Positions 1-59,840 of a DNA stretch of 64,000 bases are shown one piece after another. The notes beneath the pieces were generated by a model that searched no databases, was not told the origin of the DNA, and worked only from the letters and a program-made list of their open reading frames with translations. Origin of the DNA: Nemertoderma westbladi (Eukaryota; Animalia; Xenacoelomorpha); assembly GCA_032718475.1 (NCBI GenBank), contig JAUCBJ010000602.1, positions 11,707 through 75,706 of the forward strand, given 5' to 3'. A program made the position numbers and the translations under genes. Each line of letters starts with the position of its first letter. Positions within the stretch are counted from its first letter, which is position 1.

Positions 1-1255
1 AACGGGTACATAAAGAACTCGTTTTGATTAAGTTTAGCAGCGCCACCGAACGGGTACATAAAGAAGTCGTTTTGATTAAGTTTAGCAGCGCCACCGAACG
101 GGTACATAACGAACTCGTGTTGTTTAGGTTTAGCAGCGCCACCAAGCGGGTACATAACGAACTCGTTTTGTTTAAGTTTAGCAGCGCCACCGAACGGGTA
201 CATAAAGAACTCGTTTTGTTTAAGTTTAGCAGCGCCACCGAGCGGGTACATAAAGAACTCGTTTTGTTTAAGTTTAGCAGCGCCACCGAACGGGTACATA
301 AAGAACTCATTTTGTTTAAGTTTAGCAGCGCCACCGAAGGGGTACATAACGAACTCGTGTTGTTTAGGTTTAGCAGCGCCACCGAACGGGTACATAACGA
401 ACTCGTTTTGTTTAAGTTTAGCAGCGCCACCGAACGGGTACATAAAAAACTCGTTTTGTTTAGGTTTAGCAGCGCCACCGAACGGGTACATAACAAACTC
501 GTTTTGTTTAGGTTTAGCAGCGCCACCGAACGGGTACATAAAGAACTCGTTTTGTTTAGGTTTAGCAGCGCCACCGAACGGGTATATAAAGAACTCGTTT
601 TGTTTAAGTTTAGCAGCGCCACCGAACGGGTACATAAAGAACTCGTTTTGATTAAGTTTAGCAGCGCCACCGAACGGGTACATAAAGAACTCGTTTTGAT
701 TAAGTTTAGCAGCGCCACCGAACGGGTACATAACGAACTCGTGTTGTTTAGGTTTAGCAGCGCCACCGAACGGGTACATAACGAACTCGTTTTGTTTAGG
801 TTTAGCAGCGCCACCGAACGGGTACATAACAAACTCGTTTTGTTTAGGTTTAGCAGCGCCACCGAACGGGTACATAACGAACTCGTTTTGTTTAGGTTTA
901 GCAGCGCCACCGAACGGGTACATAACAAACTCGTTTTGTTTAGGTTTAGCAGCGCCACCGAACGGGTACATAACGAACTCGTGTTGTTTAGGTTTAGCAG
1001 CGCCACCGAACGAGTACATAACGAACTCGTTTTGTTTAGGTTTAGCAGCGCCACCGAACGGGTACATAACAAACTCGTTTTGTTTAGGTTTAGCAGCGCC
1101 ACCGAACGGGTACATAACAAACTCGTTTTGTTTAGGTTTAGCAGCGCCACCGAACGGGTACATAACGAACTCGTTTTGTTTAGGTTTAGCAGCGCAACCG
1201 AGCGGGTACATAACGAACTCGTTTTGTTTAGGTTTAGCAGCGCAACCGAGCGGGT
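1..1255 (+). repeat. 48-bp minisatellite (~26 units in window, continues past the left edge); unit = Dvl 3' splice site plus the first ~24 nt of the exon
   Basis: Unit GTACATAACGAACTCGTTTTGTTTAG|GTTTAGCAGCGCCACCGAACGG; the last unit runs directly into the Dvl exon at 1232. Confidence 0.95.
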
Positions 1256-1380
1256 GCAGCAGTCGCGGTTTCGCAGTAAGATGAGGAAGAGACGCCGTCG
1301 TCCACCTCCCAGACTCCCAACCCGCCAGCTGGTAGGTCCCAGTGGGGCTATGAGTGTCAACTCATACTCATCTATAACCG
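1232..1380 (+). CDS. dvl: Dishevelled exon: Ser-rich/basic region upstream of PDZ (FSSATERVQQSRFRSKMRKRRRRPPP...YSSIT)
   Basis: Acceptor ttttgtttAG (1230-1231) and donor GTAAGC at 1381. Resembles the Dvl 'SSSTEQ...HKRRRRK...SFSSITD' segment. The phase-1 join G|AT gives the Asp of the next exon. Confidence 0.85.
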
Positions 1381-1977: not shown

Positions 1978-2995
1978 TGTTATCTGTTATATGTTCCAGG
2001 ATGTCATTAAACATTTTTATATCCGTCATAGATTCAAGTATGTCATTGATGGTTATCTGTTATAGATTCCAGTATATCATTGATCATGGTTCTCTGTTAT
2101 AGATTCCAGTATGTCATTGATGGTTATCTGATATAGATTCCAGTATGTCATTGAACATGGTTATCTGTAATAGATTCCAGTATGTCATTGAATATGGTTA
2201 TCTGTAATAGATTCCAGTATGTCATTGAACATGGTTATCTGTTATAGATTCCAGTATGTCATTGAACATGGTTCTTTGTTATAGATTCCAGTATATCATT
2301 GAACATGGTTATCTGTTATAGATTCCAGTATGTCATTGAACATGGTTCTCTGTTATAGATTCCAGTATGTCATTGATTGTTCTCTGTTATAGATTCTAGT
2401 ATGTCATTGAACATGGTTATCTGTTATAGATTCTAGTATATCATTGAACATGGTTATCTGTTATCGATTCCAGTATGTTATTGAACATGGTTCTCTGTTA
2501 TAGATTCCAGTATATAATTGAACATGGTTATCTGTTATAGATTCCAGTATGTCATTGAACATGGTTATCTGTTATAGATTCCAGTATGTCATTGAACATG
2601 GTTATCTGTTATAGATTCCAGTATATTATTGAACATGGTTCTCTGTTATAGATTCCAGTATATCATTGAACATGGTTATCTGTTATAGATTCCAGTATGT
2701 CATTGAACATGGTTATCTGTTATAGATTCCAGTATGTCATTGAACATGGTTATCTGTTATAGATTCCAGTATGTCATTGAACATGGTTATCTGTTATAGA
2801 TTCCAGTATGTCATTGAACATGGTTCTCTGTTATAGATTCCAGTATGTCATTGATTGTTCTCTGTTATAGATTCTAGTATGTCATTGTACATGGTTATCT
2901 GTTATAGATTCTAGTATATCATTGAACATGGTTATCTGTTATAGATTCCAGTATATTATTGAACATGGTTCTCTGTTATAGATTCCAGTATGTCG
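1978..2995 (+). repeat. 37-bp minisatellite (~26 units); unit = Dvl 3' splice site plus the start of PDZ exon 1
   Basis: Unit GTTATCTGTTATAG|ATTCCAGTATGTCATTGAACATG; real exon start ATTCCAGTATGTCGCTTAACATC at 2982; degenerate copies at the 5' edge. Confidence 0.95.
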
Positions 2996-3114
2996 CTTAA
3001 CATCGTCAATGTGACACTGAATATGGAGAACGTGAATTTTCTCGGTATCAGCATTGTCGGCCAGACAAATATTGGTGGAGACGGCGGAATTTATGTTGGA
3101 TCTATTATGAAAGG
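2982..3114 (+). CDS. dvl: Dishevelled exon: PDZ N-terminal half ([45 protein letters not shown])
   Basis: Hand translation matches the Dvl PDZ 'MSLNI.TVTLNME...FLGISIVGQ...DGGIY.GSIMKG'. AG at 2980-2981, donor GTAAGT at 3115, phase 2. Confidence 0.95.
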
Positions 3115-3345
3115 GTAAGTCTATCGGGTAGATCGTTATAAAACTAGTTAATTCAATTCGGACTATGTAAGTTCAATAAAATCAAGCAATATCGTATGAT
3201 TTGAGGTATGAGGATGTTGATTTGATTAGAATTATAATATTTGGCGTCTATTAAAGGTTTTTATTGCACTAGTTTTTCTATTCATTATGTCATTATTGTA
3301 TTTGAATTGTTATATTTTTTGTTAAAATGCGTTAAATCGCTTAAT

Positions 3346-4088
3346 TAGTAACTCATTACGTCACTTTGAGTCACTCATTACGTCACTTTAGTAATTCATT
3401 ACGTCACTTTAGTAACTCATTACGTCACTTTAGTAACTCATTACGTCACTTTAGTAACTCATTACGTCACTTTAGTAACTCATTACGTCACTTTAGTAAC
3501 TCATTATGTCACTTTAGTAACTCATTACGTCACTTTAGTAACTCATTACGTCACTTTAGTAACTCATTACGTCACTTTAGTAACTCATTACGTCACTTTA
3601 GTAACTCATTACGTCACTTTAGTAACTCATTACGTCACTTTAGTAACTCATTACGTCACTTTAGTAACTCATTATGTCACTTTAGTAACTCATTACGTCA
3701 CTTTAGTAACTCATTACGTCACTTTAGTAACTCATTACGTCACTTTAGTAACTCATTACGTCACTTTAGTAACTCATTACGTCACTTTAGTAACTCATTA
3801 CGTCACTTTAGTAACTCATTACGTCACTTCGAGTCACTCATTACGTCACTTTAGTGACTCATTACGTCACTTCGAGTCACTCATTACGTCACTTTAGTAA
3901 CTCATTACGTCACTTTAGTAACTCATTACGTCACTTTAGTAACTCATTACGTCACTTTAGTAACTCATTACGTCACTTTAGTAACTCATTACGTCACTTT
4001 AGTAACTCATTACGTCACTTTAGTAACTCATTACGTCACTTTAGTAACTCATTACGTCACTTTAGTAACTCGTTACGACACTTTAGTA
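3346..4088 (+). repeat. 21-bp intronic minisatellite (TAGTAACTCATTACGTCACTT, ~35 units)
   Basis: Near-perfect tandem units ending ~20 nt before the acceptor of PDZ exon 2a. Confidence 0.95.
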
Positions 4089-4108
4089 AATGATTGCACA
4101 ATGTTTAG

Positions 4109-4317
4109 CGGCGCCGTTGCTAACGACGGTCGTATCGACCCTGGTGACGTCATACTCCAAGTGAACGACGTCACCTTCGACAATCTGACCAATGACGAGG
4201 CGGTCCATGTACTCAGAGAAGTCGCGTCTAAACCCGGCCCCGTGCGCCTCCTAGTGGCCAAGTGTTGGAACTCTACACCAGGAACTAATTCTAGTCGCTA
4301 CCTAAATATTGCTAAGT
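4109..4317 (+). CDS. dvl: Dishevelled PDZ C-terminal half, alternative exon a ([20 protein letters not shown]...[10 protein letters not shown]...IAK)
   Basis: tttAG at 4107-4108 and donor GTGAGT at 4318; 209 nt, phase 2 in and phase 1 out; clear Dvl '[20 protein letters not shown]...VAKCW' motif. Confidence 0.9.
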
Positions 4318-4871
4318 GTGAGTGGTGTTGCTATGGTTACCAAGTCGGTTGCCATGGTACACAAGTCGACGCAGGCATGGGAAGTCGCTGCTTTATACTA
4401 ACAACAATTTTGTTTTTTAGCTTTAATGAATGGTTTTAATAAAATTTATTAACATTAAACTAGCATTTTTTAACTAGCAACATTTAACAGTACTAAATTA
4501 CTTATATTTTTTAATATTTGCTTTATTAATTTTATTAATTTATAATGAAAATATTTTTTCTTATCTCTTTGCTTCCGCTCGACCTTCTGATGTTGGTTTG
4601 TATAATTTATTATATTTATCGCATTTTATCTCATCCAAAAACACCTGTTTCATACGTGTTTCCTTTTCATTGGCTGATTCCTACGTGCCGCATGGTTCAT
4701 ACATTACATACTGTATAATATATTAATTGATGTTTATTGTGGCAATTACATTATCATACTGCTGTTTGCGTTCGCTTCGTTATTCTGGTGGTGTATGTTC
4801 CCCCCCCCCCCCCCATCCCCTACCACACACTGTATTACCTCAACCCTCCCAATCTATATATCAACCCACAG

Positions 4872-5083
4872 TGGTGCCGTGGCTGCTGATGGACGTATAG
4901 AACCCGGCGATATGATCCTACAAGTCAATGACGTCAGCTTAGAGAATCTATCCAATGACGAAGCAGTTCGTGTTCTAAGGGACGTTGTGAATAAACCTAC
5001 CCCGGGCCCTGTGCGCCTCCTAGTGGTTAAATGCTGGAACCCCAACCCTCGATTAGGTTACCTATCACTGGATAGAAATCATT
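4872..5083 (+). CDS. dvl: Dishevelled PDZ C-terminal half, alternative exon b ([20 protein letters not shown]...[20 protein letters not shown])
   Basis: cacAG at 4870-4871 and donor GTTAGT at 5084; 212 nt, same phases as exon a; paralogous to 4109-4317. Confidence 0.9.
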
Positions 5084-5392
5084 GTTAGTCCTCTAGGTTG
5101 CTCGTTTTTGTTGTTGCTCAGATTATAGTGTGTGACCGTTTGCCATAATTATCTGACCAGCTACCCAGCAACTCTGCGCCCGAATGGAAAATAGCAAATT
5201 GTTTTTAAATAGCAAAAGTTTTTGATTGTCTCATTTCCTTCTGTTGTAAAAATTTCAATATGGCTTGATGTGGTTTGCATGCTGCTATGTTAAGTTACAT
5301 TATGTTTTAGCAGGGTAATGATAATTAATACATTGGATGGCCATAACGTTACGCATGCTAGTAGGGCATAATAGATGTAAATTGCTAATTTA

Positions 5393-5657
5393 CAGCAGCA
5401 GCGTGGTCTAGTGGTGACATCACTGTGCTTCCGATTAGGGAGCCCGGGTTCGATCCCTAGATGGGGCAGCACTGTTTGGGCACAGTGCTTTAAATGCTGC
5501 AGCATAGCCCAACCCTGGCTTTCATCCTTCAGTGGTCGATAAATGGGAACCAAGGCAACTTGGGAAACAGAGTGGAAGGGTTTACTGTGGAAGATCACCC
5601 ATGATAGTGGTGAACAGGCATTCCTTGGCTTAACGAGCCTAAAAGATTCTCCCATTC
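5393..5657 (+). mobile_element. tRNA-derived SINE (~265 bp) with 14-bp target-site duplication
   Basis: Pol III A-box TGGTCTAGTGG and B-box GGTTCGATCCC; flanked by the direct repeat AAATTGCTAATTTA (5379-5392, 5658-5671). The central GCTTTCATCCTTCAGTGGTCGATAAATG resembles, from memory, a conserved SINE central domain. Confidence 0.85.
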
Positions 5658-5749
5658 AAATTGCTAATTTATACATCCACTTTATTTCCATTTTTTTGAA
5701 CTGCGAACTACTGTAAAATTAAATAGACTAATTATTTTACCATTATAAT

Positions 5750-8700
5750 TATACCAGACTATTTATTTGTCACGTTACCATATTATCTCTGTATCTGGTT
5801 GATTTATTTGTTACGTTACCAGATTGATGTATTTGTCACGTTACCATATTTTCTCTGTATCCGGTTGATGTATATGTCATGTTACCATACTGTCTCTTTA
5901 TCTGATTGATTGATTTATTTGTCACGTTACCAGATTGATGTATTTGTCACGTTACCATATTGTCTCTGTATCTGGTTGATTTATTTATCACGTTACCAAA
6001 TTGATGTATTTGTCACGTTACCATATTTTCTCTGTATCTGGTTGATTTATTTGTCACGTTTCCAGATTTATTTATTTGTCACGTTACCATATTTTCTCTG
6101 TATCTGGTTGATTTATTTGTCACGTTTCAGATTGATGTATTTGTCACGTTACCATATTGTCTTCGTATCTGGTTGATTTATTTGTCACGTTTCAGATTGA
6201 TGTATTTGTCACGTTACCATATTGTCTTTGTATCTGGTTGATTTATTTGTCACGTTACCAGATGGATGTATTTGTCACGTTACCATATTGTCTCTGTATC
6301 TGGTTAATGTATTTGTCATGTTACCATATTGTCTCTGTATCTGGTTGATGTATTTGTCACGTTACCAGATTGATGTATTTGTCACGTTACCATATTGTCT
6401 CTGTATCTGGTTGATTTATTTGTTACGTTACCAGTTGGATGTATTTGTCACGTTACCATATTGTCTCTGTATATGGTTGATGTATTTGTCATGTTACCAT
6501 ATTGTCTCTGTATCTGGTTGATGTATTTGTCACGTTACCAGATTGATGTATTTGTCACGTTACCATATTGTCTCTGTATCTGGTTGATTTATTTGTTACG
6601 TTACCAGTTGGATGTATTTGTCACGTTACCATATTGTCTCTGTATATGGTTGATTTATTTGTCATGTTACCATATTGTCTCTGTATCTGGTTGATGTATT
6701 TGTCACGTTACCAGATTGATGTATTTGTCACGTTACCATATTGTCTCTGTATCTGGTTGATTTATTTGTTACGTTACCAGTTGGATGTATTTGTCACGTT
6801 ACCATATTGTCTCTGTATATGGTTGATTTATTTGTCACGTTTCAGATTGATGTATTTGTCATGTCACCATAATGTCTCTTTATCTGATTTATTTATTTAT
6901 CACGTTACCAGATTGATGTATTTGTCACGTTACCATATTTTCTCTGTATCCGGTTGATGTATATGTCATGTTACCATACTGTCTCTTTATATGATTTATT
7001 TATTTGTCACGTTACCAGATTGTTGTATTTTGTCGCGTTACCATATTTTCTCTGTATCTGGTTGATTTATTTGTCATGTTACCAGATTGATGTATTTGTC
7101 ACGTTACCAGATTGATGTATTTGTCACTTTACCAGATTGATGTATTTGTCACGTTACCATATTTTCTCTGTATCTGGTTGATTTATTTGTCACGTTTCCA
7201 GATTGATTTATTTGTCACGTTACCATATTGATGTATTTGTAACGTTACAATATTGTCTTCCTATCTGGTTGATTTATTTGTTACGTTACCAGTTTGATGT
7301 ATTTGTCACGTTACCATATTTTCTCTGTATCTGGTTGATTTATTTATCACGTTACCAGATGGATGTATTTGTCACGTTACCATATTGTCTTTGTATCTGG
7401 TTGATTTATTTGTTACGTTACCAGTTTGATGTATTTGTCACGTTACCATATTTTCTCTGTATCTGGTTGATTTATTTGTAACGTTACCAGATGGATGTAT
7501 TTGTCACGTTACCAGATTGTCTTTGTATCTGGTTGATTTATTTGTTACGTTACCAGTTTGATGTATTTGTCACGTTACCATATTTTCTCTGTATCTGGTT
7601 GATTTATTTGTAACGTTACCAGATGGATGTATTTGTCACGTTACCAGATTGATGTATTTGTCACGTTACCATATTGTCTTTGTATCTGGTTGATTTATTT
7701 GTTACGTTACCAGTTTGATCTATTTGTCACGTTACCATATTTTCTCTGTATCTGGTTGATTTATTTGTCACGTTACCAGATGGGTGTATTTGTCACGTTA
7801 CCATATTGTCTCTGTATATGGTTGATTTATTTGTCACGTTACCATATTGATGTATTGTTCTCGTTATCACATTGTCTCTGTATCTGGTTGATGTATTTGT
7901 CACGTTACCATATTGTCTCTGTATCTGGTTGATGTATTTGTCACGTTACCTGATTGATGTATTTGTCATGTTGTCATATTTTATCTGTATCCGGTTGATG
8001 TATTTGTCACGTTACCATATTGTCTTTGTATCTGGTTGATTTATTTGTCACGTTACCATATTATCTCTGTATCTGGTTCATTTATTTGTCACGTTACCAA
8101 ATTGATGTATTTGTCACGTTACCAAATTGATGTATTTGTCACGTTACCAAATTGATGTATTTGTCATGTTGTCATATTTTATCTGTATCCGGTTGATGTA
8201 TTTGTCACGTTACCATATTGTCTTTGTATCTGGTTGATTTATTTGTCACGTTACCAGATTGATGTATTTTGTCACGTTACCATATTGTCTCTGTATCTGG
8301 TTGATTTATTTATTACGTTACCAGATGGATGTATTTGTCACGTTACCATATTGTCTCTGTATCTGGTTGATTTATTTGTCACGTTACCAGATTGATGTAT
8401 TTTGTCACGTTACCATATTGTCTCTGTATCTGGTTGATTTATTTGTCACGTTACCATATTGTCTCTGTATCAGGTTGATTTATTTATTACGTTACCAGAT
8501 GGATGTATTTGTCACGTTACCATATTGTCTCTGTATCTGGTTGATTTATTTGTCACGTTACCAGATTGATGTATTTTGTCACGTTACCATATTGTCCCTG
8601 TATCTGGTTGATTTATTTGTCACGTTACCAGATTGATGTATTTGTCATATTATCATATTTTATCTGTATCTGGTTGATGTATTTGTCACGTTACCAGATT

Positions 8701-10500
8701 GATGTATTTGTCATGTTGTCATATTTTATCTGTATCCGGTTGATGTATTTGTCCCGTTACCATATTGTCTTTGTATCTGGTTGATTTATTTGTCACGTTA
8801 CCATATTGTCTCTGTATCTGGTTGATTTATTTGTTACGTTACCAGATGGATGTATTTGTCACGTTACCATATTGTCTCCGTATCTGGTTGATTTATTTGT
8901 CACGTTACCAGATTGATGTATTTTGTCACGTTACCATATTGTCTCTGTATCTGGTTGATTTATTTGTCACGTTACCAGATTGATGTATTTGTCATATTAT
9001 CATATTTTCTCTGTATCTGGTTGATGTATTTGTCACGTTACCAGATTTATGTATTTGTCATGTTGTCATATTTTATCTGTATCCGGTTGATGTATTTGTC
9101 ACGTTACCATATTGTCTTTGTATCTGGTTGATTTATTTGTCACGTTACCATATTGTCTCTGTATCTGGTTGATTTATTTGTTACGTTACCAGATGGATGT
9201 ATTTGTCACGTTACCATATTGTCTCTGTATCTGGTTGATGTATTTGTCACGTTACCATATTGTCTTTGTATCTGGTTGATTTATTTGTCACGTTACCATA
9301 TTGTCTCTGTATCTGGTTGATTTATTTGTTACGTTACCAGATGGATGTATTTGTCACGTTACCATATTGTCTCTGTATCTGGTTGATGTATTTGTCACGT
9401 TACCAGATTGATGTATTTTTCACGTTACCATATTGTCTCTGTATCTGGTTGATGTATTTGTCATGTCACGTTACCAGATTGATGTATTTTTCACGTTATC
9501 ACATTGTCTCTGTATCTGGTTGATGTATTTGTCACGTTACCATATTGTCTTTGTATCTGGTTGATATATTTGTCACGTTACCATATTGTCTCTGTATCTG
9601 GTTGATGTATTTGTCACGTTAGCAGATTAATGTATTTGTCACGTTACCATATTGTCTCTGTATCTGGTTGATGTATTTGTCACGTTACCAGATTGATGTA
9701 TTTTTCACGTTACCATATTGTCTCTGTATCTGGTTGATGTATTTGTCATGTCACGTTACCAGATTGATGTATTTTTCACGTTATCACATTGTCTCTGTAT
9801 CTGGTTGATGTATTTGTCACGTTACCATATTGTCTCTGTATCTGGTTGATGTATTTGTCACGTTACCAGATAGATGTATTTGTCATGTTATCATATTTTC
9901 TCTGTATCTGGTTGATGTATTTGTCACGTTACCATATTGTCTTTGTATCTGGTTGATTTATTTGTCACGTTACCATATTGTCTCTGTATCTGGTTGATGT
10001 ATTTGTCACGTTACCAGATTAATGTATTTGTCACGTTACCATATTGTCTCTGTATCTGGTTGATGTATTTGTCACGTTACCAGATTGATGTATTTTTCAC
10101 GTTACCATATTGTCTCTGTATCTGGTTGATGTATTTGTCACGTTACCAGATTGATGTATTTTTCACGTTACCATATTGTCTCTGTATCTGGTTGATGTAT
10201 TTGTCACGTTACCAGATTGATGTATTTGTCATGTTATCATATTTTCTCTGTATCTGGTTGATTTATTTGTCACGTTACCAGATTGATGTATTTTGTCAAG
10301 TTACCATATTATCTCTATATCTGGTTGATTTATTTGTTACGTTACCAGATTGATGTATGTGTCACGTTACAATATTGTCTCTATTTCTGGTTGATTTATC
10401 GTCAACGTTACCAAATTTTCTCTGAACCCGGACCAGATCTCGTTACCAGAGTGTTTATGTAACCTGATTGAATTATTTGCCATATTACCAGATTATTCCT
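5750..10500 (+). repeat. Compound intronic minisatellite of interleaved ~25-bp and ~41-bp related modules
   Basis: Modules GTATTTGTCACGTTACCAGATTGAT and TTATTTGTCACGTTACCATATTGTCTCTGTATCTGGTTGAT in variable order; degenerate at both edges. Confidence 0.9.
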
Positions 10501-10615
10501 GAATCTGTTTTAATTATTTGGACTGTTACTAGATTGTTTCTATAAAGTCCCGAATTAGCTGCCTGCAACTGATTCGTAACTGGACCTTCTTAACTATTAA
10601 CTAATGATTCCACAG

Positions 10616-10768
10616 GTGAGCCCATCCGACCAATTGACCCATCCACTTGGATTGACCAATCACGAAGCAGCAACGACTACCGGGATTACAGGAATTCTGC
10701 CATCAGCCCATCAAGAAGTTCCGTTTCCCATAGCAGCAGTGTAAATAGTAGCGTTCCAGAATCCGAGC
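10616..10768 (+). CDS. dvl: Dishevelled exon after PDZ (CEPIRPIDPSTWIDQSR...SSVPESE)
   Basis: cacAG at 10614-10615 and donor GTTAGT at 10769; Dvl 'EP.RPIDP..W' and 'SS.PESER' motifs; 153 nt, phase 1/1. Confidence 0.92.
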
Positions 10769-10903
10769 GTTAGTACTTCTGTAAACAGTTCTAGCGTTCT
10801 AGAATACTCGAGTTGGTACCTCAGTAAAAAGTTAGCGTTCCAGAATCCTAGAGATATAGTAATAAGTTTATTTAAATGTTATTATTGTAATTAATTATTT
10901 TAG

Positions 10904-11035
10904 GTTACGAACAAGATCGGCTAACTATTAACACTGACATTGCAACTGTTGTGAAACACTTACAACGAGATGATATCGGTTTGGACATCAGAGACCGTCA
11001 GTGGCTCAAGATTACTATCCACGACGCCTTTATAG
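10904..11035 (+). CDS. dvl: Dishevelled exon: DEP domain start (RYEQDRLTINTDIATVVKHLQRDDIGLDIRDRQWLKITIHDAFI)
   Basis: ttttAG at 10902-10903 and donor GTTCGT at 11036; matches DEP 'GLEIRDRMWLKITI.NAFIG' including the conserved Lys. Confidence 0.93.
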
Positions 11036-18179: not shown

Positions 18180-21152
18180 GTACGTTGCGGTGCTATTACG
18201 TACTGTCCGACGTTGCAGGTACGTTGCGGTGCTATTACGTACTGTCCGACGTTGCAGGTACGTTACAGTGCTATTACGTACTGTCCGACGTTGCAGGCAG
18301 GTTCAGTCTACAGTGCTATTACGTACTGTCCGACGTTGCAGGTACGTTACAGTGCTATTACGTACTGTCCGACGTTGCAGGTACGTTACAGTGCTATTAC
18401 GTACTGTCCGACGTTGCAGGTACGTTACAGTGCTATTGCGTACTGTCCGACGTTGCAGGTACGTTACAGTGCTATTACGTACTGTCCGACGTTACAGGTA
18501 CGTTACAGTGCTATTACGTACTGTCCGACGTTACAGGTACGTTACAGTGCTATTACGTAATACGTACTGTCCGACGTTACAGGTACGTTACTGTGCTATT
18601 ACGTACTGTCCGACGTTATAGGTACGTTACAGTGCTATTACGTACTGTCCGACGTTACAGGTACGTTACAGTGCTATTACGTACTGTCCGACGTTACAGG
18701 TACGTTACAGTGCTATTACGTACTGTCCGACGTTACAGGTACGTTACAGTGCTATTACGTACTGTCCGACGTTACAGATACGTTACAGTGCTATTACGTA
18801 CTGTCCGACGTTACAGGTACGTTACAGTGCTATTACGTACTGTCCGACGTTACAGGTACGTTACAGTGCTATTACGTACTGTCCGACGTTACAGGTACGT
18901 TACAGTGCTATTACGTACTGTCCGACGTTACAGGTATGTTACAGTGCTATTACGTACTGTCCGACGTTACAGGTACGTTACAGTGCTATTACGTACTGTC
19001 CGACGTTACAGGTACGTTACAGTGCTATTACGTACTGTCCGACGTTACAGGTACGTTACAGTGCTATTACGTACTGTCCGACGTTACAGGTACGTTACAG
19101 TGCTATTACGTACTGTCCGACGTTACAGGTACGTTACAGTGCTATTACGTACTGTCCGACGTTACAGGTACGTTACAGTGCTATTACGTACTGTCCGACG
19201 TTACAGGTACGTTACAGTGCTATTACGTACTGTCCGACGTTGCAGGTACGTTACGTCTACAGTGCTATTACGTACTGTCCGACGTTACAGGTACGTTACA
19301 GTGCTATTACGTACTGTCCGACGTTACAGGTACGTTACAGTGCTACTACGTACTGTCCGACGTTACAGGTACGTTACAGTGCTATTACGTACTGTCCGAC
19401 GTTACAGGTACGTTACAGTGCTATTACGTACTGTCCGACGTTGCAGGTACGTTACGTCTACAGTGCTATTACGTACTGTCCGACGTTACAGGTACGTGAC
19501 AGTGCTATTACGTACTGTCCGACGTTACAGGTACGTTACAGTGCTATTACGTACTGTCCGACGTTGCAGGTACGTTACGTCTACAGTGCTATTACGTACT
19601 GTCCGACGTTACAGGTACGTTACAGTGCTATTACGTACTGTCCGACGTTGCAGGTACGTTACAGTGCTATTACGTACTGTCCGACGTTACAGGTACGTTA
19701 CAGTGCTATTACGTACTGTCCGACATTACAGGTACGTTACAGTGCTAGTACGTACTGTCGGACGTTGCAGGTACGTTACGTCTACAGTGCTATTACGTAC
19801 TGTCCGACGTTACAGGTACGTTACAGTGCTATTACGTACTGTCCGACGTTACAGGTACGTTACAGTGCTATTACGTACTGTCCGACGTTGCAGGTACGTT
19901 ACAGTGCTATTACGTACTGTCCGACGTTACAGGTACGTTACAGTGCTATTACGTACTGTCCGACGTTGCAGGTACGTTACGTCTACAGTGCTATTACGTA
20001 CTGTCCGACGTTACAGGTACGTTACAGTGCTATTACGTACTGTCCGACGTTACAGGTACGTTACAGTGCTATTACGTACTGTCCGACGTTGCAGGTACGT
20101 TACGTCTACAGTGCTATTACGTACTGTCCGACGTTACAGGTACGTTGCAGTGCTATTACGTGCTGTCCGACGTTATAGGTACGTTACAGTGCTATTACGT
20201 ACTGTCCGACGTTACAGGTACGTTACAGTGCTATTACGTACTGTCCGACGTTACAGGTACGTTACAGTGCTATTACGTACTGTCCGACGTTACAGGTACG
20301 TTACAGTGCTATTACGTACTGTCCGACGTTGCAGGTACGTTACGTCTACAGTGCTATTACGTACTGTTCGACGTTACAGGTACGTTACAGTGCTATTACG
20401 TACTGTCCGACGTTACAGGTACGTTACAGTGCTATTACGTACTGTCCGACGTTACAGGTACGTTACAGTGCTATTACGTACTGTCCGACGTTACAGGTAC
20501 GTTACAGTGCTATTACGTACTGTCCGACGTTACAGGTACGTTACAGTGCTATTACGTACTGTCCGACGTTGCAGGTACGTTACGTCTACAGTGCTATTAC
20601 GTACTGTCCGACGATACAGGTACGTTACAGTGCTATTACGTACTGTCCGACGTTGCAGGCAGGTTACGTCTACAGTGCTATCACGTACTGTCCGACGTAC
20701 TGTCCGACGTTACAGGTACGTTACAGTGCTATTACGTACTGTCCGACGTTACAGGTACGTTACAGTGCTATTACGTACTGTCCTACGTTACAGGTACGTT
20801 ACAGTGCTATTACGTACTGTCCGACGTTGCAGGTACGTTACGTCTACAGTGCTATTACGTACTGTCCGACGTTGCAGGTACGTTACGTACTGTCCGACGT
20901 TGCAGGCAGGTTACGTCTACAGTGCTATTACGTACTGTCCGACGTTACAGGTACGTTACAGTGCTATTACGTTCTGTCCGACGTTACAGGTACGTTACAG
21001 TGCTATTACGTATTCTCCGACGTTGCAGGTACGTTACAGTGCTATTACGTACCGTCTGACGTTACAGGTACGTTACAGTGCTATTACGTACTGTCCGACG
21101 TTACAGGTACGTTACAGTGCTATTACGTACTGTCCGACGTTACAGGTACGTT
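18149..21152 (+). repeat. 39-bp minisatellite (~75 units); unit = last 31 nt of the DEP exon plus the 5' splice site
   Basis: Unit CAGTGCTATTACGTACTGTCCGACGTT(G/A)CAG|GTACGTTA; the first unit is the exon end itself; some 44-bp variants. Confidence 0.95.
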
Positions 21153-21347
21153 ATGTCTTAGGTGGAACTAGTTTGATTGTTTATGGATTGGATCAGTGGG
21201 TTTACTGTTTTGGTCGGTTGGATTACTCTTTGAGTCGTGGGGTTACTGCTTGGCTCTGTGTGGGTTTACTATTTTGGAAGGCTATAACGTTTTAATTACA
21301 AAATATCTATCAAAATAATCTCAATCATTCTCAATAAACTCGTTTAG

Positions 21348-21455
21348 GTCATATGGGGGATCTCTCATTGGCCGGTGGTATGGAGCAATCGGGCGATCAT
21401 ATGGACAACCTGCCTCAACTTCCTCCACAGTACGGCTGGGCACCAAATTATGCAA
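21348..21455 (+). CDS. dvl: Dishevelled exon after DEP (GHMGDLSLAGGMEQSGDHMDNLPQLPPQYGWAPNYA)
   Basis: tttAG at 21346-21347 and donor GTAAGT at 21456; 108 nt, phase 1/1; loosely like Dvl 'DQDTLAPLP...PW'. Confidence 0.8.
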
Positions 21456-21553
21456 GTAAGTGAAAAGCGGTTTCTGATTTTTGGTAAATACATCCAACAA
21501 AATGACGGTATATTTATATAGCGTTATAATTAATTACAACATTATAATTACAG

Positions 21554-21730
21554 CGGCCCATTACTACCAACCCCATTCTGCCGGATACTCCAGCTACGCA
21601 GTTGACTATGGCGATATCGACAGCTGTTCCACCAATACTTACAACTCTGTACCACAAGAGCAGTATGGTGGTACACGGGAAAGGGACACAAAGGGCACAG
21701 GCAGAAGTCACCACTCTGTAGATAGTGCTG
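21554..21730 (+). CDS. dvl: Dishevelled C-terminal region exon (TAHYYQPHSAGY...GRSHHSVDSA)
   Basis: tacAG at 21552-21553 and donor GTTAGT at 21731; 177 nt, open in the continuing frame. Confidence 0.78.
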
Positions 21731-24700
21731 GTTAGTAATCAACTCTAGTAGACAGAAGTCACCGCTCTGTAGATAGTGCTGGTTAGTAATCAACTCTAGT
21801 AGACAGAAGTCACCACTCTGTAGATAGTGCTGGTTAGTAATCAACTCTAGTAGACAGAAGTCACCACTCTGTAGATAGTGCTGGTTAGTAATCAACTCTA
21901 GTAGACAGAAGTCACCACTCTGTAGATAGTGCTGGTTAGTAATCAACTCTAGTAGACAGAAGTCACCACTCTGTAGATAGTGCTGGTTAGTAATCAACTC
22001 TAGTAAACAGAAGTCACCACTCTGTAGATAGTGCTGGTTAGTAATCAACTCTAGTAGACAGAAGTCACCACTCTGTAGATAGTGCTGGTTAGTAATCAAC
22101 TCTAGTAGACAGAAGTCACCACTCTGTAGATAGTGCTGGTTAGTAATCAACTCTAGTAGACAGAAGTCACCACTCTGTAGATAGTGCTGGTTAGTAATCA
22201 ACTCTAGTAGACAGAAGTCACCACTCTGTAGATAGTGCTGGTTAGTAATCAACTCTAGTAGACATAAGTCACCACTCTGTAGATAGTGCTGGTTAGTAAT
22301 CAACTCTAGTAGACAGAAGTCACCACTCTGTAGATAGTGCTGGTTAGTAATCAACTCTAGTAGACAGAAGTCACCGCTCTGTAGATAGTGCTGGTTAGTA
22401 ATCAACTCTAGTAGACAGAAGTCACCACTCTGTAGATAGTGCTGGTTAGTAATCAACTCTAGTAGACAGAAGTCACCGCTCTGTAGATAGTGCTGGTTAG
22501 TAATCAACTCTAGTAGACAGAAGTCACCACTCTGTAGATAGTTCTGGTTAGTAATCAACTCTAGTAGACAGAAGTCACCACTCTGTAGATAGTGCTGGTT
22601 AGTAATCAACTCTAGTAGACAGAAGTCACCACTCTGTAGATAGTTCTGGTTAGTAATCAACTCTAGTAGACAGAAGTCACCACTCTGTAGATAGTGCTGG
22701 TTAGTAATCAACTCTAGTAGACAGAAGTCACCACTCTGTAGATAGTGCTGGTTAGTAATCAACTCTAGTAGACAGAAGTCACCACTCTGTAGATAGTTCT
22801 GGTTAGTAATCAACTCTAGTAGACAGAAGTCACCACTCTGTAGATAGTGCTGGTTAGTAATCAACTCTAGTAGACAGAAGTCACCACTCTGTAGATAGTG
22901 CTGGTTAGTAATCAACTCTAGTAGACAGAAGTCACCACTCTGTAGATAGTGCTGGTTAGTAATCAACTCTAGTAGACAGAAGTCACCACTCTGTAGATAG
23001 TGCTGGTTAGTAATCCACTCTAGTAGACAGAAGTCACCACTCTGTAGATAGTGCTGGTTAGTAATCAACTCTAGTAGACAGAAGTCACCACTCTGTAGAT
23101 AGTGCTGGTTAGTAATCAACTCTAGTAGACAGAAGTCACCACTCTGTAGATAGTGCTGGTTAGTAATCAACTCTAGTAGACAGAAGTCACCACTCTGTAG
23201 ATAGTGCTGGTTAGTAATCAACTCTAGTAGACAGAAGTCACCGCTCTGTAGATAGTGCTGGTTAGTAATCAACTCTAGTAGACAGAAGTCACCGCTCTGT
23301 AGATAGTGCTGGTTAGTAATCAACTCTAGTAGACAGAAGTCACCGCTCTGTAGATAGTGCTGGTTAGTAATCAACTCTATTAGACAGAAGTCACCACTCT
23401 GTAGATAGTGCTGGTTAGTAATCAACTCTAGTAGACAGAAGTCACCACTCTGTAGATAGTGCTGGTTAGTAATCAACTCTAGTAGACAGAAGTCACCACT
23501 CTGTAGATAGTGCTGGTTAGTAATCAACTCTAGTAGACAGAAGTCACCACTCTGTAGATAGTGCTGGTTAGTAATCAACTCTAGTAGACAGAAGTCACCG
23601 CTCTGTAGATAGTGCTGGTTAGTAATCAACTCTAGTAGACAGAAGTCACCGCTCTGTAGATAGTGCTGGTTAGTAATCAACTCTATTAGACAGAAGTCAC
23701 CACTCTGTAGATAGTGCTGGTTAGTAATCAACTCTAGTAGACAGAAGTCACCACTCTGTAGATAGTGCTGGTTAGTAATCAACTCTAGTAGACAGAAGTC
23801 ACCACTCTGTAGATAGTGCTGGTTAGTAATCAACTCTAGTAGACAGAAGTCACCACTCTGTAGATAGTGCTGGTTAGTAATCAACTCTAGTAGACAGAAG
23901 TCACCACTCTGTAGATAGTGCTGGTTAGTAATCAACTCTAGTAGACAGAAGTCACCACTCTGTAGATAGTGCTGGTTAGTAATCAACTCTAGTAGACAGA
24001 AGTCACCACTCTGTAGATAGTGCTGGTTAGTAATCAACTCTAGTAGACAGAAGTCACCACTCTGTAGATAGTGCTGGTTAGTAATCAACTCTAGTAGACA
24101 GAAGTCACCACTCTGTAGATAGTGCTGGTTAGTAATCAACTCTAGTAGACAGAAGTCACCACTCTGTAGATAGTGCTGGTTAGTAATCAACTCTAGTAGA
24201 CAGAAGTCACCACTCTGTAGATAGTGCTGGTTAGTAATCAACTCTAGTAGACAGAAGTCACCACTCTGTAGATAGTGCTGGTTAGTAATCAACTCTAGTA
24301 GACAGAAGTCACCACTCTGTAGATAGTGCTGGTTAGTAATCAACTCTAGTAGACAGAAGTCACCACTCTGTAGATAGTGCTGGTTAGTAATCAACTCTAG
24401 TAGACAGAAGTCACCGCTCTGTAGATAGTGCTGGTTAGTAATCAACTCTAGTAGACAGAAGTCACCGCTCTGTAGATAGTGCTGGTTAGTAATCAACTCT
24501 AGTAGACAGAAGTCACCACTCTGTAGATAGTGCTGGTTAGTAATCAACTCTAGTAGACAGAAGTCACCGCTCTGTAGATAGTGCTGGTTAGTAATCAACT
24601 CTAGTAGACAGAAGTCACCGCTCTGTAGATAGTGCTGGTTAGTAATCAACTCTAGTAGACAGAAGTCACCACTCTGTAGATAGTGCTGGTTAGTAATCAA

Positions 24701-27700
24701 CTCTAGTAGACAGAAGTCACCACTCTGTAGATAGTGCTGGTTAGTAATCAACTCTAGTAGACAGAAGTCACCGCTCTGTAGATAGTGCTGGTTAGTAATC
24801 AACTCTAGTAGACAGAAGTCACCACTCTGTAGATAGTGCTGGTTAGTAATCAACTCTAGTAGACAGAAGTCACCGCTCTGTAGATAGTGCTGGTTAGTAA
24901 TCAACTCTAGTAGACAGAAGTCACCACTCTGTAGATAGTGCTGGTTAGTAATCAACTCTAGTAGACAGAAGTCACCACTCTGTAGATAGTGCTGGTTAGT
25001 AATCAACTCTAGTAGACAGAAGTCACCACTCTGTAGATAGTGCTGGTTAGTAATCAACTCTAGTAGACAGAAGTCACCACTCTGTAGATAGTGCTGGTTA
25101 GTAATCAACTCTAGTAGACAGAAGTCACCACTCTGTAGATAGTGCTGGTTAGTAATCAACTCTAGTAGACAGAAGTCACCACTCTGTAGATAGTGCTGGT
25201 TAGTAATCAACTCTAGTAGACAGAAGTCACCACTCTGTAGATAGTGCTGGTTAGTAATCAACTCTAGTAGACAGAAGTCACCACTCTGTAGATAGTGCTG
25301 GTTAGTAATCAACTCTAGTAGACAGAAGTCACCACTCTGTAGATAGTGCTGGTTAGTAATCAACTCTAGTAGACAGAAGTCACCACTCTGTAGATAGTGC
25401 TGGTTAGTAATCAACTCTAGTAGACAGAAGTCACCACTCTGTAGATAGTGCTGGTTAGTAATCAACTCTAGTAGACAGAAGTCACCACTCTGTAGATAGT
25501 GCTGGTTAGTAATCAACTCTAGTAGACAGAAGTCACCACTCTGTAGATAGTGCTGGTTAGTAATCAACTCTAGTAGACAGAAGTCACCACTCTGTAGATA
25601 GTGCTGGTTAGTAATCAACTCTAGTAGACAGAAGTCACCACTCTGTAGATAGTGCTGGTTAGTAATCAACTCTAGTAGACAGAAGTCACCAGCTCTGTAG
25701 ATAGTGCTGGTTAGTAATCAACTCTAGTAGACAGAAGTCACCACTCTGTAGATAGTGCTGGTTAGTAATCAACTCTAGTAGACAGAAGTCACCACTCTGT
25801 AGATAGTGCTGGTTAGTAATCAACTCTAGTAGACAGAAGTCACCACTCTGTAGATAGTGCTGGTTAGTAATCAACTCTAGTAGACAGAAGTCACCACTCT
25901 GTAGATAGTGCTGGTTAGTAATCAACTCTAGTAGACAGAAGTCACCACTCTGTAGATAGTGCTGGTTAGTAATCAACTCTAGTAGACAGAAGTCACCACT
26001 CTGTAGATAGTGCTGGTTAGTAATCAACTCTAGTAGACAGAAGTCACCACTCTGTAGATAGTGCTGGTTAGTAATCAACTCTAGTAGACAGAAGTCACCA
26101 CTCTGTAGATAGTGCTGGTTAGTAATCAACTCTAGTAGACAGAAGTCACCACTCTGTAGATAGTGCTGGTTAGTAATCAACTCTAGTAGACAGAAGTCAC
26201 CACTCTGTAGATAGTGCTGGTTAGTAATCAACTCTAGTAGACAGAAGTCACCACTCTGTAGATAGTGCTGGTTAGTAATCAACTCTAGTAGACAGAAGTC
26301 ACCACTCTGTAGATAGTGCTGGTTAGTAATCAACTCTAGTAGACAGAAGTCACCACTCTGTAGATAGTGCTGGTTAGTAATCAACTCTAGTAGACAGAAG
26401 TCACCACTCTGTAGATAGTGCTGGTTAGTAATCAACTCTAGTAGACAGAAGTCACCACTCTGTAGATAGTGCTGGTTAGTAATCAACTCTAGTAGACAGA
26501 AGTCACCACTCTGTAGATAGTGCTGGTTAGTAATCAACTCTAGTAGACAGAAGTCACCACTCTGTAGATAGTGCTGGTTAGTAATCAACTCTAGTAGACA
26601 GAAGTCACCACTCTGTAGATAGTGCTGGTTAGTAATCAACTCTAGTAGACAGAAGTCACCACTCTGTAGATAGTGCTGGTTAGTAATCAACTCTAGTAGA
26701 CAGAAGTCACCACTCTGTAGATAGTGCTGGTTAGTAATCAACTCTAGTAGACAGAAGTCACCACTCTGTAGATAGTGCTGGTTAGTAATCAACTCTAGTA
26801 GACAGAAGTCACCACTCTGTAGATAGTGCTGGTTAGTAATCAACTCTAGTAGACAGAAGTCACCACTCTGTAGATAGTGCTGGTTAGTAATCAACTCTAG
26901 TAGACAGAAGTCACCACTCTGTAGATAGTGCTGGTTAGTAATCAACTCTAGTAGACAGAAGTCACCACTCTGTAGATAGTGCTGGTTAGTAATCAACTCT
27001 AGTAGACAGAAGTCACCACTCTGTAGATAGTGCTGGTTAGTAATCAACTCTAGTAGACAGAAGTCACCACTCTGTAGATAGTGCTGGTTAGTAATCAACT
27101 CTAGTAGACAGAAGTCACCACTCTGTAGATAGTGCTGGTTAGTAATCAACTCTAGTAGACAGAAGTCACCACTCTGTAGATAGTGCTGGTTAGTAATCAA
27201 CTCTAGTAGACAGAAGTCACCACTCTGTAGATAGTGCTGGTTAGTAATCAACTCTAGTAGACAGAAGTCACCACTCTGTAGATAGTGCTGGTTAGTAATC
27301 AACTCTAGTAGACAGAAGTCACCACTCTGTAGATAGTGCTGGTTAGTAATCAACTCTAGTAGACAGAAGTCACCACTCTGTAGATAGTGCTGGTTAGTAA
27401 TCAACTCTAGTAGACAGAAGTCACCACTCTGTAGATAGTGCTGGTTAGTAATCAACTCTAGTAGACAGAAGTCACCACTCTGTAGATAGTGCTGGTTAGT
27501 AATCAACTCTAGTAGACAGAAGTCACCACTCTGTAGATAGTGCTGGTTAGTAATCAACTCTAGTAGACAGAAGTCACCACTCTGTAGATAGTGCTGGTTA
27601 GTAATCAACTCTAGTAGACAGAAGTCACCACTCTGTAGATAGTGCTGGTTAGTAATCAACTCTAGTAGACAGAAGTCACCACTCTGTAGATAGTGCTGGT

Positions 27701-30700
27701 TAGTAATCAACTCTAGTAGACAGAAGTCACCACTCTGTAGATAGTGCTGGTTAGTAATCAACTCTAGTAGACAGAAGTCACCACTCTGTAGATAGTGCTG
27801 GTTAGTAATCAACTCTAGTAGACAGAAGTCACCACTCTGTAGATAGTGCTGGTTAGTAATCAACTCTAGTAGACAGAAGTCACCACTCTGTAGATAGTGC
27901 TGGTTAGTAATCAACTCTAGTAGACAGAAGTCACCACTCTGTAGATAGTGCTGGTTAGTAATCAACTCTATTAGACATAAGTCACCACTCTGTAGATAGT
28001 GCTGGTTAGTAATCAACTCTAGTAGACAGAAGTCACCACTCTGTAGATAGTGCTGGTTAGTAATCAACTCTAGTAGACAGAAGTCACCACTCTGTAGATA
28101 GTGCTGGTTAGTAATCAACTCTAGTAGACAGAAGTCACCACTCTGTAGATAGTGCTGGTTAGTAATCAACTCTAGTAGACAGAAGTCACCACTCTGTAGA
28201 TAGTGCTGGTTAGTAATCAACTCTAGTAGACAGAAGTCACCGCTCTGTAGATAGTGCTGGTTAGTAATCAACTCTAGTAGACAGAAGTCACCACTCTGTA
28301 GATAGTGCTGGTTAGTAATCAACTCTAGTAGACAGAAGTCACCACTCTGTAGATAGTGCTGGTTAGTAATCAACTCTAGTAGACAGAAGTCACCGCTCTG
28401 TAGATAGTGCTGGTTAGTAATCAACTCTAGTAGACAGAAGTCACCACTCTGTAGATAGTGCTGGTTAGTAATCAACTCTAGTAGACAGAAGTCACCGCTC
28501 TGTAGATAGTGCTGGTTAGTAATCAACTCTAGTAGACAGAAGTCACCACTCTGTAGATAGTGCTGGTTAGTAATCAACTCTAGTAGACAGAAGTCACCAC
28601 TCTGTAGATAGTGCTGGTTAGTAATCAACTCTAGTAGACAGAAGTCACCACTCTGTAGATAGTGCTGGTTAGTAATCAACTCTATTAGACATAAGTCACC
28701 ACTCTGTAGATAGTGCTGGTTAGTAATCAACTCTAGTAGACAGAAGTCACCACTCTGTAGATAGTGCTGGTTAGTAATCAACTCTAGTAGACAGAAGTCA
28801 CCACTCTGTAGATAGTGCTGGTTAGTAATCAACTCTAGTAGACATAAGTCACCACTCTGTAGATAGTGCTGGTTAGTAATCAACTCTAGTAGACAGAAGT
28901 CACCACTCTGTAGATAGTGCTGGTTAGTAATCAACTCTAGTAGACATAAGTCACCACTCTGTAGATAGTGCTGGTTAGTAATCAACTCTAGTAGACAGAA
29001 GTCACCACTCTCTAGATAGTGCTGGTTAGTAATCAACTCTAGTAGACATAAGTCACCACTCTGTAGATAGTGCTGGTTAGTAATCAACTCTAGTAGACAG
29101 AAGTCACCACTCTGTAGATAGTGCTGGTTAGTAATCAACTCTAGTAGACAGAAGTCACCACTCTGTAGATAGTGCTGGTTAGTAATCAACTCTAGTAGAC
29201 AGAAGTCACCACTCTGTAGATAGTGCTGGTTAGTAATCAACTCTAGTAGACAGAAGTCACCGCTCTGTAGATAGTGCTGGTTAGTAATCAACTCTAGTAG
29301 ACAGAAGTCACCACTCTGTAGATAGTTCTGGTTAGTAATCAACTCTAGTAGACAGAAGTCACCACTCTGTAGATAGTGCTGGTTAGTAATCAACTCTAGT
29401 AGACAGAAGTCACCACTCTGTAGATAGTGCTGGTTAGTAATCAACTCTATTAGACAGAAGTCACCACTCTGTAGATAGTTCTGGTTAGTAATCAACTCTA
29501 GTAGACAGAAGTCACCACTCTGTAGATAGTGCTGGTTAGTAATCAACTCTAGTAGACAGAAGTCACCACTCTGTAGATAGTGCTGGTTAGTAATCAACTC
29601 TAGTAGACAGAAGTCACCACTCTGTAGATAGTGCTGGTTAGTAATCAACTCTAGTAGACAGAAGTCACCACTCTGTAGATAGTGCTGGTTAGTAATCAAC
29701 TCTAGTAGACAGAAGTCACCACTCTGTAGATAGTGCTGGTTAGTAATCAACTCTATTAGACAGAAGTCACCACTCTGTAGATAGTTCTGGTTAGTAATCA
29801 ACTCTAGTAGACAGAAGTCACCACTCTGTAGATAGTGCTGGTTAGTAATCAACTCTAGTAGACAGAAGTCACCACTCTGTAGATAGTGCTGGTTAGTAAT
29901 CAACTCTATTAGACAGAAGTCACCACTCTGTAGATAGTTCTGGTTAGTAATCAACTCTAGTAGACAGAAGTCACCACTCTGTAGATAGTGCTGGTTAGTA
30001 ATCAACTCTAGTAGACAGAAGTCACCACTCTGTAGATAGTGCTGGTTAGTAATCAACTCTAGTAGACAGAAGTCACCACTCTGTAGATAGTGCTGGTTAG
30101 TAATCAACTCTAGTAGACAGAAGTCACCACTCTGTAGATAGTGCTGGTTAGTAATCAACTCTATTAGACAGAAGTCACCACTCTGTAGATAGTTCTGGTT
30201 AGTAATCAACTCTAGTAGACAGAAGTCACCACTCTGTAGATAGTGCTGGTTAGTAATCAACTCTAGTAGACAGAAGTCACCACTCTGTAGATAGTGCTGG
30301 TTAGTAATCAACTCTAGTAGACAGAAGTCACCACTCTGTAGATAGTGCTGGTTAGTAATCAACTCTATTAGACAGAAGTCCCCACTCTGTAGATAGTTCT
30401 GGTTAGTAATCAACTCTAGTAGACAGAAGTCACCACTCTGTAGATAGTGCTGGTTAGTAATCAACTCTACTAGACAGAAGTCACCACTCTGTAGATAGTG
30501 CTGGTTAGTAATCAACTCTAGTAGACAGAAGTCACCACTCTGTAGATAGTGCTGGTTAGTAATCAACTCTAGTAGACAGAAGTCACCACTCTGTAGATAG
30601 TGCTGGTTAGTAATCAACTCTAGTAGACAGAAGTCACCACTCTGTAGATAGTGCTGGTTAGTAATCAACTCTAGTAGACAGAAGTCACCACTCTGTAGAT

Positions 30701-31688
30701 AGTGCTGGTTAGTAATCAACTCTAGTAGACAGAAGTCACCACTCTGTAGATAGTGCTGGTTAGTAATCAACTCTAGTAGACAGAAGTCACCACTCTGTAG
30801 ATAGTGCTGGTTAGTAATCAACTCTAGTAGACAGAAGTCACCACTCTGTAGATAGTGCTGGTTAGTAATCAACTCTAGTAGACAGAAGTCACCACTCTGT
30901 AGATAGTGCTGGTTAGTAATCAACTCTAGTAGACAGAAGTCACCACTCTGTAGATAGTGCTGGTTAGTAATCAACTCTATTAGACAGAAGTCCCCACTCT
31001 GTAGATAGTTCTGGTTAGTAATCAACTCTAGTAGACAGAAGTCACCACTCTGTAGATAGTGCTGGTTAGTAATCAACTCTAGTAGACAGAAGTCACCACT
31101 CTGTAGATAGTGCTGGTTAGTAATCAACTCTAGTAGACAGAAGTCACCACTCTGTAGATAGTGCTGGTTAGTAATCAACTCTAGTAGACAGAAGTCACCA
31201 CTCTGTAGATAGTGCTGGTTAGTAATCAACTCTAGTAGACAGAAGTCACCACTCTGTAGATAGTGCTGGTTAGTAATCAACTCTATTAGACAGAAGTCCC
31301 CACTCTGTAGATAGTTCTGGTTAGTAATCAACTCTAGTAGACAGAAGTCACCACTCTGTAGATAGTGCTGGTTAGTAATCAACTCTAGTAGACAGAAGTC
31401 ACCACTCTGTAGATAGTGCTGGTTAGTAATCAACTCTAGTAGACAGAAGTCACCACTCTGTAGATAGTGCTGGTTAGTAATCAACTCTATTAGACAGAAG
31501 TCACCACTCTGTAGATAGTTCTGGTTAGTAATCAACTCTAGTAGACAGAAGTCACCACTCTGTAGATAGTGCTGGTTAGTAATCAACTCTAGTAGACAGA
31601 AGTCACCACTCTGTAGATAGTGCTGGTTAGTAATCAACTCTAGTAGACAGAAGTCACCGCTCTGTAGATAGTGCTGGTTAGTAATCAA
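21700..31688 (+). repeat. 51-bp minisatellite (~195 units, ~10 kb); unit = last 31 nt of the exon plus the 5' splice site and 20 nt of intron
   Basis: Unit GACAGAAGTCACCACTCTGTAGATAGTGCTG|GTTAGTAATCAACTCTAGTA; very homogeneous; fills nearly the whole intron. Confidence 0.97.

Positions 31689-59112: not shown

Positions 59113-59840
<728 letters not shown>

Follow-up and report, generated by a model that had tools for sequence, protein, structure and literature searches.

Splice-junction minisatellites in the Dishevelled gene of Nemertoderma westbladi, an extreme case of a known repeat class

How the spliceosome chooses among identical splice sites is a long-standing question, for which the human F7 gene offered 4–8 decoys. 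The same question is raised on an unusual scale by the Dishevelled (Dvl) gene in a stretch of DNA from Nemertoderma westbladi (assembly GCA_032718475.1, contig JAUCBJ010000602.1, positions 11,707 to 75,706 of the forward strand; these 64,000 nucleotides (nt) are called the window below). Five arrays in this one gene, the largest of them 10 kb long with 195 identical decoy donors, have repeat units that appear to be tandem copies of the gene's own exon-intron boundaries. Here we ask what these units are, which copy is used in splicing, and whether the arrays call for anything more than neutral growth of minisatellites of the type named "mirages".

The gene at 1–32056 on the + strand is Dishevelled, of which the window holds the 3' part. 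The encoded protein has Pfam matches to PDZ (exons B, C1 and C2) and DEP (exon F), and the order PDZ then DEP is that of Dishevelled, with DIX upstream of the window; the best PDB matches of exon C2, its closest solved structures, are DVL1–3. Exons A, B, C2 and D through I have AG/GT borders and join into a single open frame. A protein search with exon A gave 14 candidates, none of which was the host species' own Dvl. The exons, all on the + strand, are as follows:

1232–1380, +, exon A, encoding the basic region that precedes PDZ (open frame; acceptor 1232 putative)
2982–3114, +, exon B, N-terminal half of PDZ (open frame, Pfam; acceptor by frame test)
4109–4317, +, exon C1, alternative C-terminal half of PDZ (open frame, Pfam)
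4872–5083, +, exon C2, C-terminal half of PDZ (open frame, Pfam, PDB matches)
10616–10768, +, exon D (open frame)
10904–11035, +, exon E, start of DEP (open frame)
18015–18179, +, exon F, DEP (open frame, Pfam; donor 18179 used in a spliced contig)
21348–21455, +, exon G (open frame, spliced contig)
21554–21730, +, exon H (open frame; donor 21730 used in the spliced contig)
31781–32056, +, exon I, with the stop codon near 32030 (start joined to exon H in the spliced contig)

Arrays were called with Tandem Repeats Finder, and the common unit of each was compared by alignment with the 30 exonic nt at every one of the 20 exon ends, with 300 shuffled units as the null. Five arrays straddle a junction:

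1–1255, +, 48-bp acceptor-straddling array, 26.1 copies, to be read as at least 26 as it extends past the window start (Tandem Repeats Finder, unit alignment)
1979–2994, +, 37-bp acceptor-straddling array, 27.7 copies (Tandem Repeats Finder, unit alignment)
10741–10853, +, 43-bp degenerate donor-straddling array, 2.7 copies (Tandem Repeats Finder, alignment by eye)
18148–21153, +, 39-bp donor-straddling array, 75 copies (Tandem Repeats Finder, unit alignment)
21702–31688, +, 51-bp donor-straddling array, 195.8 copies with 98% matches (Tandem Repeats Finder, unit alignment)

The 48-, 37-, 39- and 51-bp units each match their own junction only, with scores of 39, 30, 55 and 58 that were reached by 0 of 300 shuffles, and the 43-bp copies align by eye with the end of exon D. 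The 48-mer consists of about 24 nt of intron and about 24 nt of exon, the 37-mer of 14 nt of intron and about 23 nt that are exon-like, the 39-mer of 31 nt of exon and 8 nt of intron, and the 51-mer of 29 nt of exon, 12 nt of intron and 10 nt of filler. Judged by these alignments, the units are copied exon-intron boundaries with an independent origin at each junction. A preliminary description of this DNA had claimed four main junction arrays, a degenerate fifth (10741–10860), and unrelated units of independent origin; all three points are borne out.

The same description spoke of introns filled by, and built from, copies of their junctions. The share of the intron that is array is 63% for the 37-mer, 94% for the 39-mer and 99% for the 51-mer, so "filled" is not borne out as stated, and each of these introns retains a unique remainder of 92–598 nt that bears the opposite splice site. 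Because this remainder persists in each, the introns have been enlarged and not created, so that "built from" must be given up; the arrays expand introns that existed before them. Creation of the introns by the duplications themselves (Rogers-type intron gain) has been demonstrated experimentally (PMC3265369) and proposed for mirages (PMC3087553). In Dvl every unit already includes intron sequence, and this, together with the unique remainders, makes such an origin very unlikely. Against it we also count at least three Dvl intron positions that appear to match those of vertebrate DVL.

Which copy is used was examined in public sequencing runs, four of which (of six found) contain the probe stretch; they come from three studies and were compared over 21110–21790. 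None of the runs is labelled as RNA. One of them, X4, is a single run of contigs labelled "DNA?", and contigs drop rare isoforms; we read it as RNA because one of its contigs skips introns at GT..AG joints. This 1686-nt contig (depth 215) covers exons G and H, with the G–H intron skipped at GT..AG; one of its loose ends maps to 18118 in exon F and the other to 31782 in exon I. Exactly one unit lies between exon-F-specific letters and exon G, and exon H directly joins exon I, so the first copy is the donor used at both donor arrays, at 18179 and at 21730. These donors are chosen ahead of decoys with an identical 9-mer, 67 in the 39-mer array and 195 in the 51-mer array. The claim that the functional site is always the terminal copy holds for these two donors, by one X4 contig; on the acceptor side, reading frame singles out the last copy at 2982 but not at 1232. 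The claim is also partly true by construction, since only the terminal copy touches the rest of the exon.

Acceptor AGs are intact in 26 of 28 copies of the 37-mer and 16 of 26 of the 48-mer (terminal copy included). Position 2982 is the sole in-frame, stop-free acceptor among 26 candidates. At 1232, all 16 AG-bearing copies of the 48-mer are in frame and stop-free, and the array itself is stop-free in the exon frame throughout its 26 copies. Exon definition would pick the last acceptor copy, since only that copy adjoins the full exon and its donor. Among the 69 donor-like sites of the 39-mer array, nine (the real one and eight decoys) give an in-frame, stop-free message; in the 51-mer array, which has 196 such sites, this holds for the real donor alone, and every decoy leads to a stop. 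Decay of faulty mRNA therefore cannot be the whole filter, because eight decoy donors and 15 decoy acceptors (the latter in the 48-mer array) are in frame and without a stop.

These stop-free decoys raise the possibility that some are used at a meaningful rate, in which case the 39- and 48-bp arrays would add in-frame repeats of 13 and 16 residues (after DEP and before the basic region, respectively) and the stop-carrying arrays would tune the Dvl level via decay. Two extra pseudo-sites are employed in human 6-16 and CBS (PMC1557585), and another X4 contig, 69 nt long and at depth 19, consists of the 39-mer unit. This contig is of the distal unit type, which has 31 exact copies, so its depth amounts to less than 1 per copy, against 215 for the mRNA contig, which takes the first donors; its source may be unspliced RNA, some leak into decoys or a similar array at another locus. 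The 12 distinct variants of the 48-mer, three synonymous and nine non-synonymous, lie near the neutral expectation of 22% synonymous, so a coding role for this array is disfavoured, although the comparison has little power. Unit lengths that are multiples of three (39, 48 and 51) can be chance, and 37 and 43 are not such multiples. On balance, meaningful use of the decoys seems to us improbable. The want of X4 cover over the 51-mer array, set beside the 39-mer contig, was considered as a sign of leak and decay and was not used, as missing cover proves nothing.

Decoys could also serve as stepping stones for recursive splicing, the AG/GT joins acting as ratchet sites in enlarged introns. CAG/GTACGT is present in 68 of 72 anchored copies of the 39-mer, and TAG/GT in the 48- and 47-mers (the latter an intronic array described below). 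The motif of the 39-mer is accounted for by the copying of an exon that ends in CAG, its AG is preceded by exon sequence and not by a pyrimidine tract (the 48-mer fits loosely), and the motif is missing from the 51-mer (CTG/GT) and the 37-mer (TAG/AT). To our knowledge introns of 1.6–10 kb require no ratchet, and we regard this role as most improbable.

Differences among copies bear on how the arrays turn over. In the 39-mer array the first eight copies carry the G of the exon and most distal copies carry A; in the 48-mer array the last two copies match the exon, the other 24 differ at 2–6 sites, and the AG is missing from 10 of the 15 distal copies but retained in all of the last 11. Edge copies are thus set apart in both arrays. 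The 37-mer consensus differs from its exon at Ser and Leu codons with the amino acid kept, which suggests that this array preserves an older state of the exon. The edge gradients, and the splitting of another array by a retroelement (below), fit ordinary concerted evolution.

Not all Dvl arrays lie at junctions. The three that do not, and the inserted element, are:

3345–4089, +, 21-bp purely intronic array, 35 copies (unit against exon ends, P=0.37)
5752–10417, +, 25/41/66-bp purely intronic array (66-mer against exon ends, P=0.98)
11075–17916, +, 47-bp intronic array, 33 + 73 copies split by a retroelement, not exon-derived
12640–14470, −, reverse-transcriptase element with a 598-codon open frame (RVT_1, E=9e-29)

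None of the 21-, 66- and 47-bp units, nor a 42-bp unit from elsewhere in the window, matches any of the 20 Dvl exon ends (P 0.37–0.98). The 47-bp array had been put forward as a looser sixth junction case; no part of its unit derives from an exon (P=0.56 for the match to exon ends), and an 8-nt match of the unit across the donor has P=0.075 when that site is taken singly and 0.76 when a match at any one of the 20 would count, so this case falls away. The two other large arrays, of 21 bp at 3345–4089 and 66 bp at 5752–10417, had been omitted from the earlier account. The element at 12640–14470, which sits inside the 47-bp array and splits it, is likely a 5'-truncated long interspersed nuclear element; by eye, a short fragment related to it seems present near 53970–54050. 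That three of eight Dvl arrays lie off any junction, with many more arrays in the rest of the window, counts in favour of neutral growth.

Are junctions nevertheless amplified preferentially, as the preliminary description proposed? Array or inserted retroelement accounts for 26,280 of 29,111 intron bases, and once these are collapsed the nine introns shrink to 55–932 nt each and to about 3.0 kb in all; the collapsed lengths are approximations, and the gene was picked for its pattern (post hoc). Seven arrays were counted, including the degenerate 43-mer; since the window does not contain the whole intron of the 48-mer, that array was excluded (with it, five of eight straddle). Against present intron lengths, four straddlers of seven give P about 1e-5, a naive null that we rejected because the arrays themselves inflate those lengths. 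Against collapsed lengths, the expectation is 1.1–1.6 straddlers when seeds may land at any position of the gene (P=0.013–0.046), and 2.2–2.6 when each intron receives one array (P=0.085–0.19); without the degenerate case the collapsed null gives P=0.05–0.13. A modest junction bias is possible but not shown, and the proposal is not supported.

A mutational process that favours exon-intron junctions as seeds or as expansion substrates, leaving splice choice unchanged, could operate, for example, where GC-rich exon edges break or undergo crossover, or through transcription-coupled damage at splice sites. The excess over the pooled null speaks for it, as do the GC content of the exons (52%, against 35% in unique intron), the 10-nt filler of the 51-mer, which resembles the adjacent exon as templated repair might leave it, and a candidate acceptor array in the next gene (below). 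On the other side stand the per-intron null, the weakening of the result once the degenerate case is dropped, the choice of the gene for its pattern, and the 37-mer, whose GC content is just 31%. We hold such a bias to be a tentative possibility, and it can coexist with neutral growth of the arrays.

The arrays might instead be artefacts of assembly. No contig spans any array, and the depth ratio of the 51-mer varies from 36 to 208 between runs. The DNA runs are X1 (study P1), which may be the source sample, and X2 and X3 (study P2), which come from one other sample. Words of the two donor arrays occur in X1, X2 and X3 at 32–208 times the unique depth (36–208 for the 51-mer, 32–92 for the 39-mer), a depth that does not equal copy number, and "goes back 39" joints are present in X1 and X2/X3. 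That two studies both yielded DNA with these words at high depth argues against an artefact, as do the structured variants and gradients among the copies, and we consider this explanation extremely unlikely. Beside the end of the 39-mer array, a 96-nt stretch (21145–21240) is missing in X1 and X2 contigs and present in X3; the flank of this array is polymorphic.

The explanation that we think probable is that these are mirage-type minisatellites that grew neutrally and are tolerated through positional choice of splice sites. Its first step would be the frequent seeding, in this genome, of tandem duplications of 20–70 bp; as the collapsed Dvl introns are short, a seed would often overlap a junction, and whereas out-of-frame seeds wholly within an exon would be purged, straddling ones would leave one intact exon. 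Unequal exchange or slippage would then expand and homogenise the array while its edge copies lag, as the variant gradients suggest. The third step, use of the first donor, is seen in one run for the donors. Finally, going by the F7 experiments, the choice would be positional, whether by 5'-to-3' scanning or by exon definition, and would not depend on mRNA decay. A function of the arrays is unnecessary to explain the pattern.

Several points weigh against this explanation. The array lengths are those of the assembly. The pooled null leaves an excess of straddlers, and with the 48-mer included five of eight arrays straddle. Selection, and not turnover, could underlie the AG gradient of that array. 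Transcript support is confined to the donors, while the frame of the 48-mer array is open through all 26 copies; it comes from the one run labelled "DNA?", in whose contigs rare isoforms would be dropped, and the 69-nt contig of that run may reflect leaky decoy use. A bolder form, in which in this lineage a junction-biased mutational process sets up arrays throughout the genome, with hundreds of identical decoys per intron on both donor and acceptor sides, and the spliceosome is accurate by position, with a slight leak at stop-free arrays, strikes us as doubtful. Were it true, no natural system for testing scanning against exon definition would be larger than this genome, and mirages would count among the main causes of its intron growth.

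Whatever their origin, the arrays could be put to use. Long cDNA over the stop-free in-frame decoys could measure raw splice-site error unmasked by mRNA decay. The acceptor arrays matter most, as first-AG scanning predicts use of an upstream copy and exon definition predicts use of the last. Introns that have expanded as much as about 100-fold through copies of their own borders can also mislead gene prediction and the assembly of short reads.

Separately from the arrays, Dvl has two copies of the exon that encodes the C-terminal half of its PDZ (4109–4317, 209 nt, and 4872–5083, 212 nt); they have equal phases and both match PDZ. Inclusion of both would shift the frame, so they are likely mutually exclusive exons that give two PDZ variants. 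X4 contains 0.29 of the words of 4095–5750, where 0.11 is expected for one PDZ exon and 0.22 for both, which is only a hint that both are expressed. A literature search found no report of a duplicated PDZ exon in Dishevelled.

The rest of the window holds parts of other genes and further arrays. The one that most resembles the Dvl junction arrays lies in the next gene:

46164–47983, −, 32-bp array with 57 copies, candidate acceptor mirage (from sequence)

Its unit comprises 22 nt ending in CTGACCAG and 10 nt of a candidate 14-nt micro-exon (46164–46177) that keeps the frame between its neighbours, so it may be an acceptor mirage. A 26-bp array with 12 copies at 56806–57129 (− strand) stops short of a donor-like GTGAG by a few bases and is possibly a junction array. 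At 43212–43836 (− strand) an 18-bp coding minisatellite encodes about 35 PNET(A/S)Y repeats within a 590-codon open frame of a neighbouring gene, whose upstream exons are EGF-like by eye; Pfam gave no match for the two short exons tested. Other arrays have units of 42 bp (136 copies, 32978–38656), of 33 bp (40 copies) grading into a derived 17 bp (34 copies; together 39564–41483), and of (AATC) (182 copies, 59113–59841). The 3' part of MADD (61779–64000, − strand) is a single intronless open frame of at least 739 codons with about 60% GC, unlike the intron-rich Dvl; a large exon, intron loss and a retrocopy are candidate explanations. It is 43–56% identical to the best 120 of 7831 matches, which are led by those from a nemertean and hemichordates; the lancelet matches are at 53–56%.

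The repeat class to which the Dvl arrays belong is already named and known, contrary to the novelty suggested for it in the preliminary description, and Dvl is an extreme case by its scale. Our literature search, which covered mostly non-subscription papers without their supplements, found no genome-wide mirage survey and no array of comparable size, and, among the papers listed for Xenacoelomorpha, none on the junction-array pattern. Human relatives are known in F7 (a 37-bp variable number tandem repeat in intron 7), 6-16 (IFI6), CBS (intron 13), lamin B2 and PDGF, with 5–25 copies (PMC1557585). In F7, as in Dvl, the first unit spans the donor and identical pseudo-donors follow it; experiments showed that, of the functional donors, the one lying furthest upstream prevails and that in-frame pseudo-sites are ignored (PMC1557585). 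The F7 unit includes only 4 exon bases, against 29–31 in the Dvl donor arrays, and the human cases have one array per gene and on the donor side only (PMC1557585), whereas Dvl has two acceptor arrays.

Boundary repeats of human segmental duplications (PMC2812944) and Rogers-type gain (PMC3265369) likewise involve duplications that carry splice signals, but there exonic repeats give rise to new introns or alternative exons, whereas in Dvl existing introns have grown and the protein stays the same. In the mouse pseudoautosomal region most introns are occupied by minisatellites, which is credited to frequent recombination; those introns are described as sharing the mo-2 family (bioRxiv 10.1101/2022.03.26.485930), whereas each Dvl unit is copied from its own junction.

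A close likeness is to the mirages of lancelets, known from Adh3, the globins BflGb6 and BflGb9, troponin C and PGBD5 (PMC3087553, PMC3902484). The host of the Dvl arrays is not a lancelet, its neighbouring MADD being 53–56% identical to that of Branchiostoma. In both, tandem units span the intron-exon boundary on either side (PMC3087553, PMC3902484). Lancelet units are 10–160 bp long, a range that includes the 37–51 bp of Dvl, many of their copies keep AG/GT, and normal splicing is reported for them; the Dvl arrays are alike in units, signals and use of donors. Concerted evolution with exclusion of edge copies, and several loci per genome, are further features that lancelet mirages and the Dvl arrays have in common, and somatic instability has been reported for the Adh3 mirage (cited via PMC3087553, PMC3902484). 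Where the two differ is in size, the lancelet globin mirages having 3–6 copies, and Dvl five arrays in one gene, the large ones with 26–196 copies and up to 10 kb.

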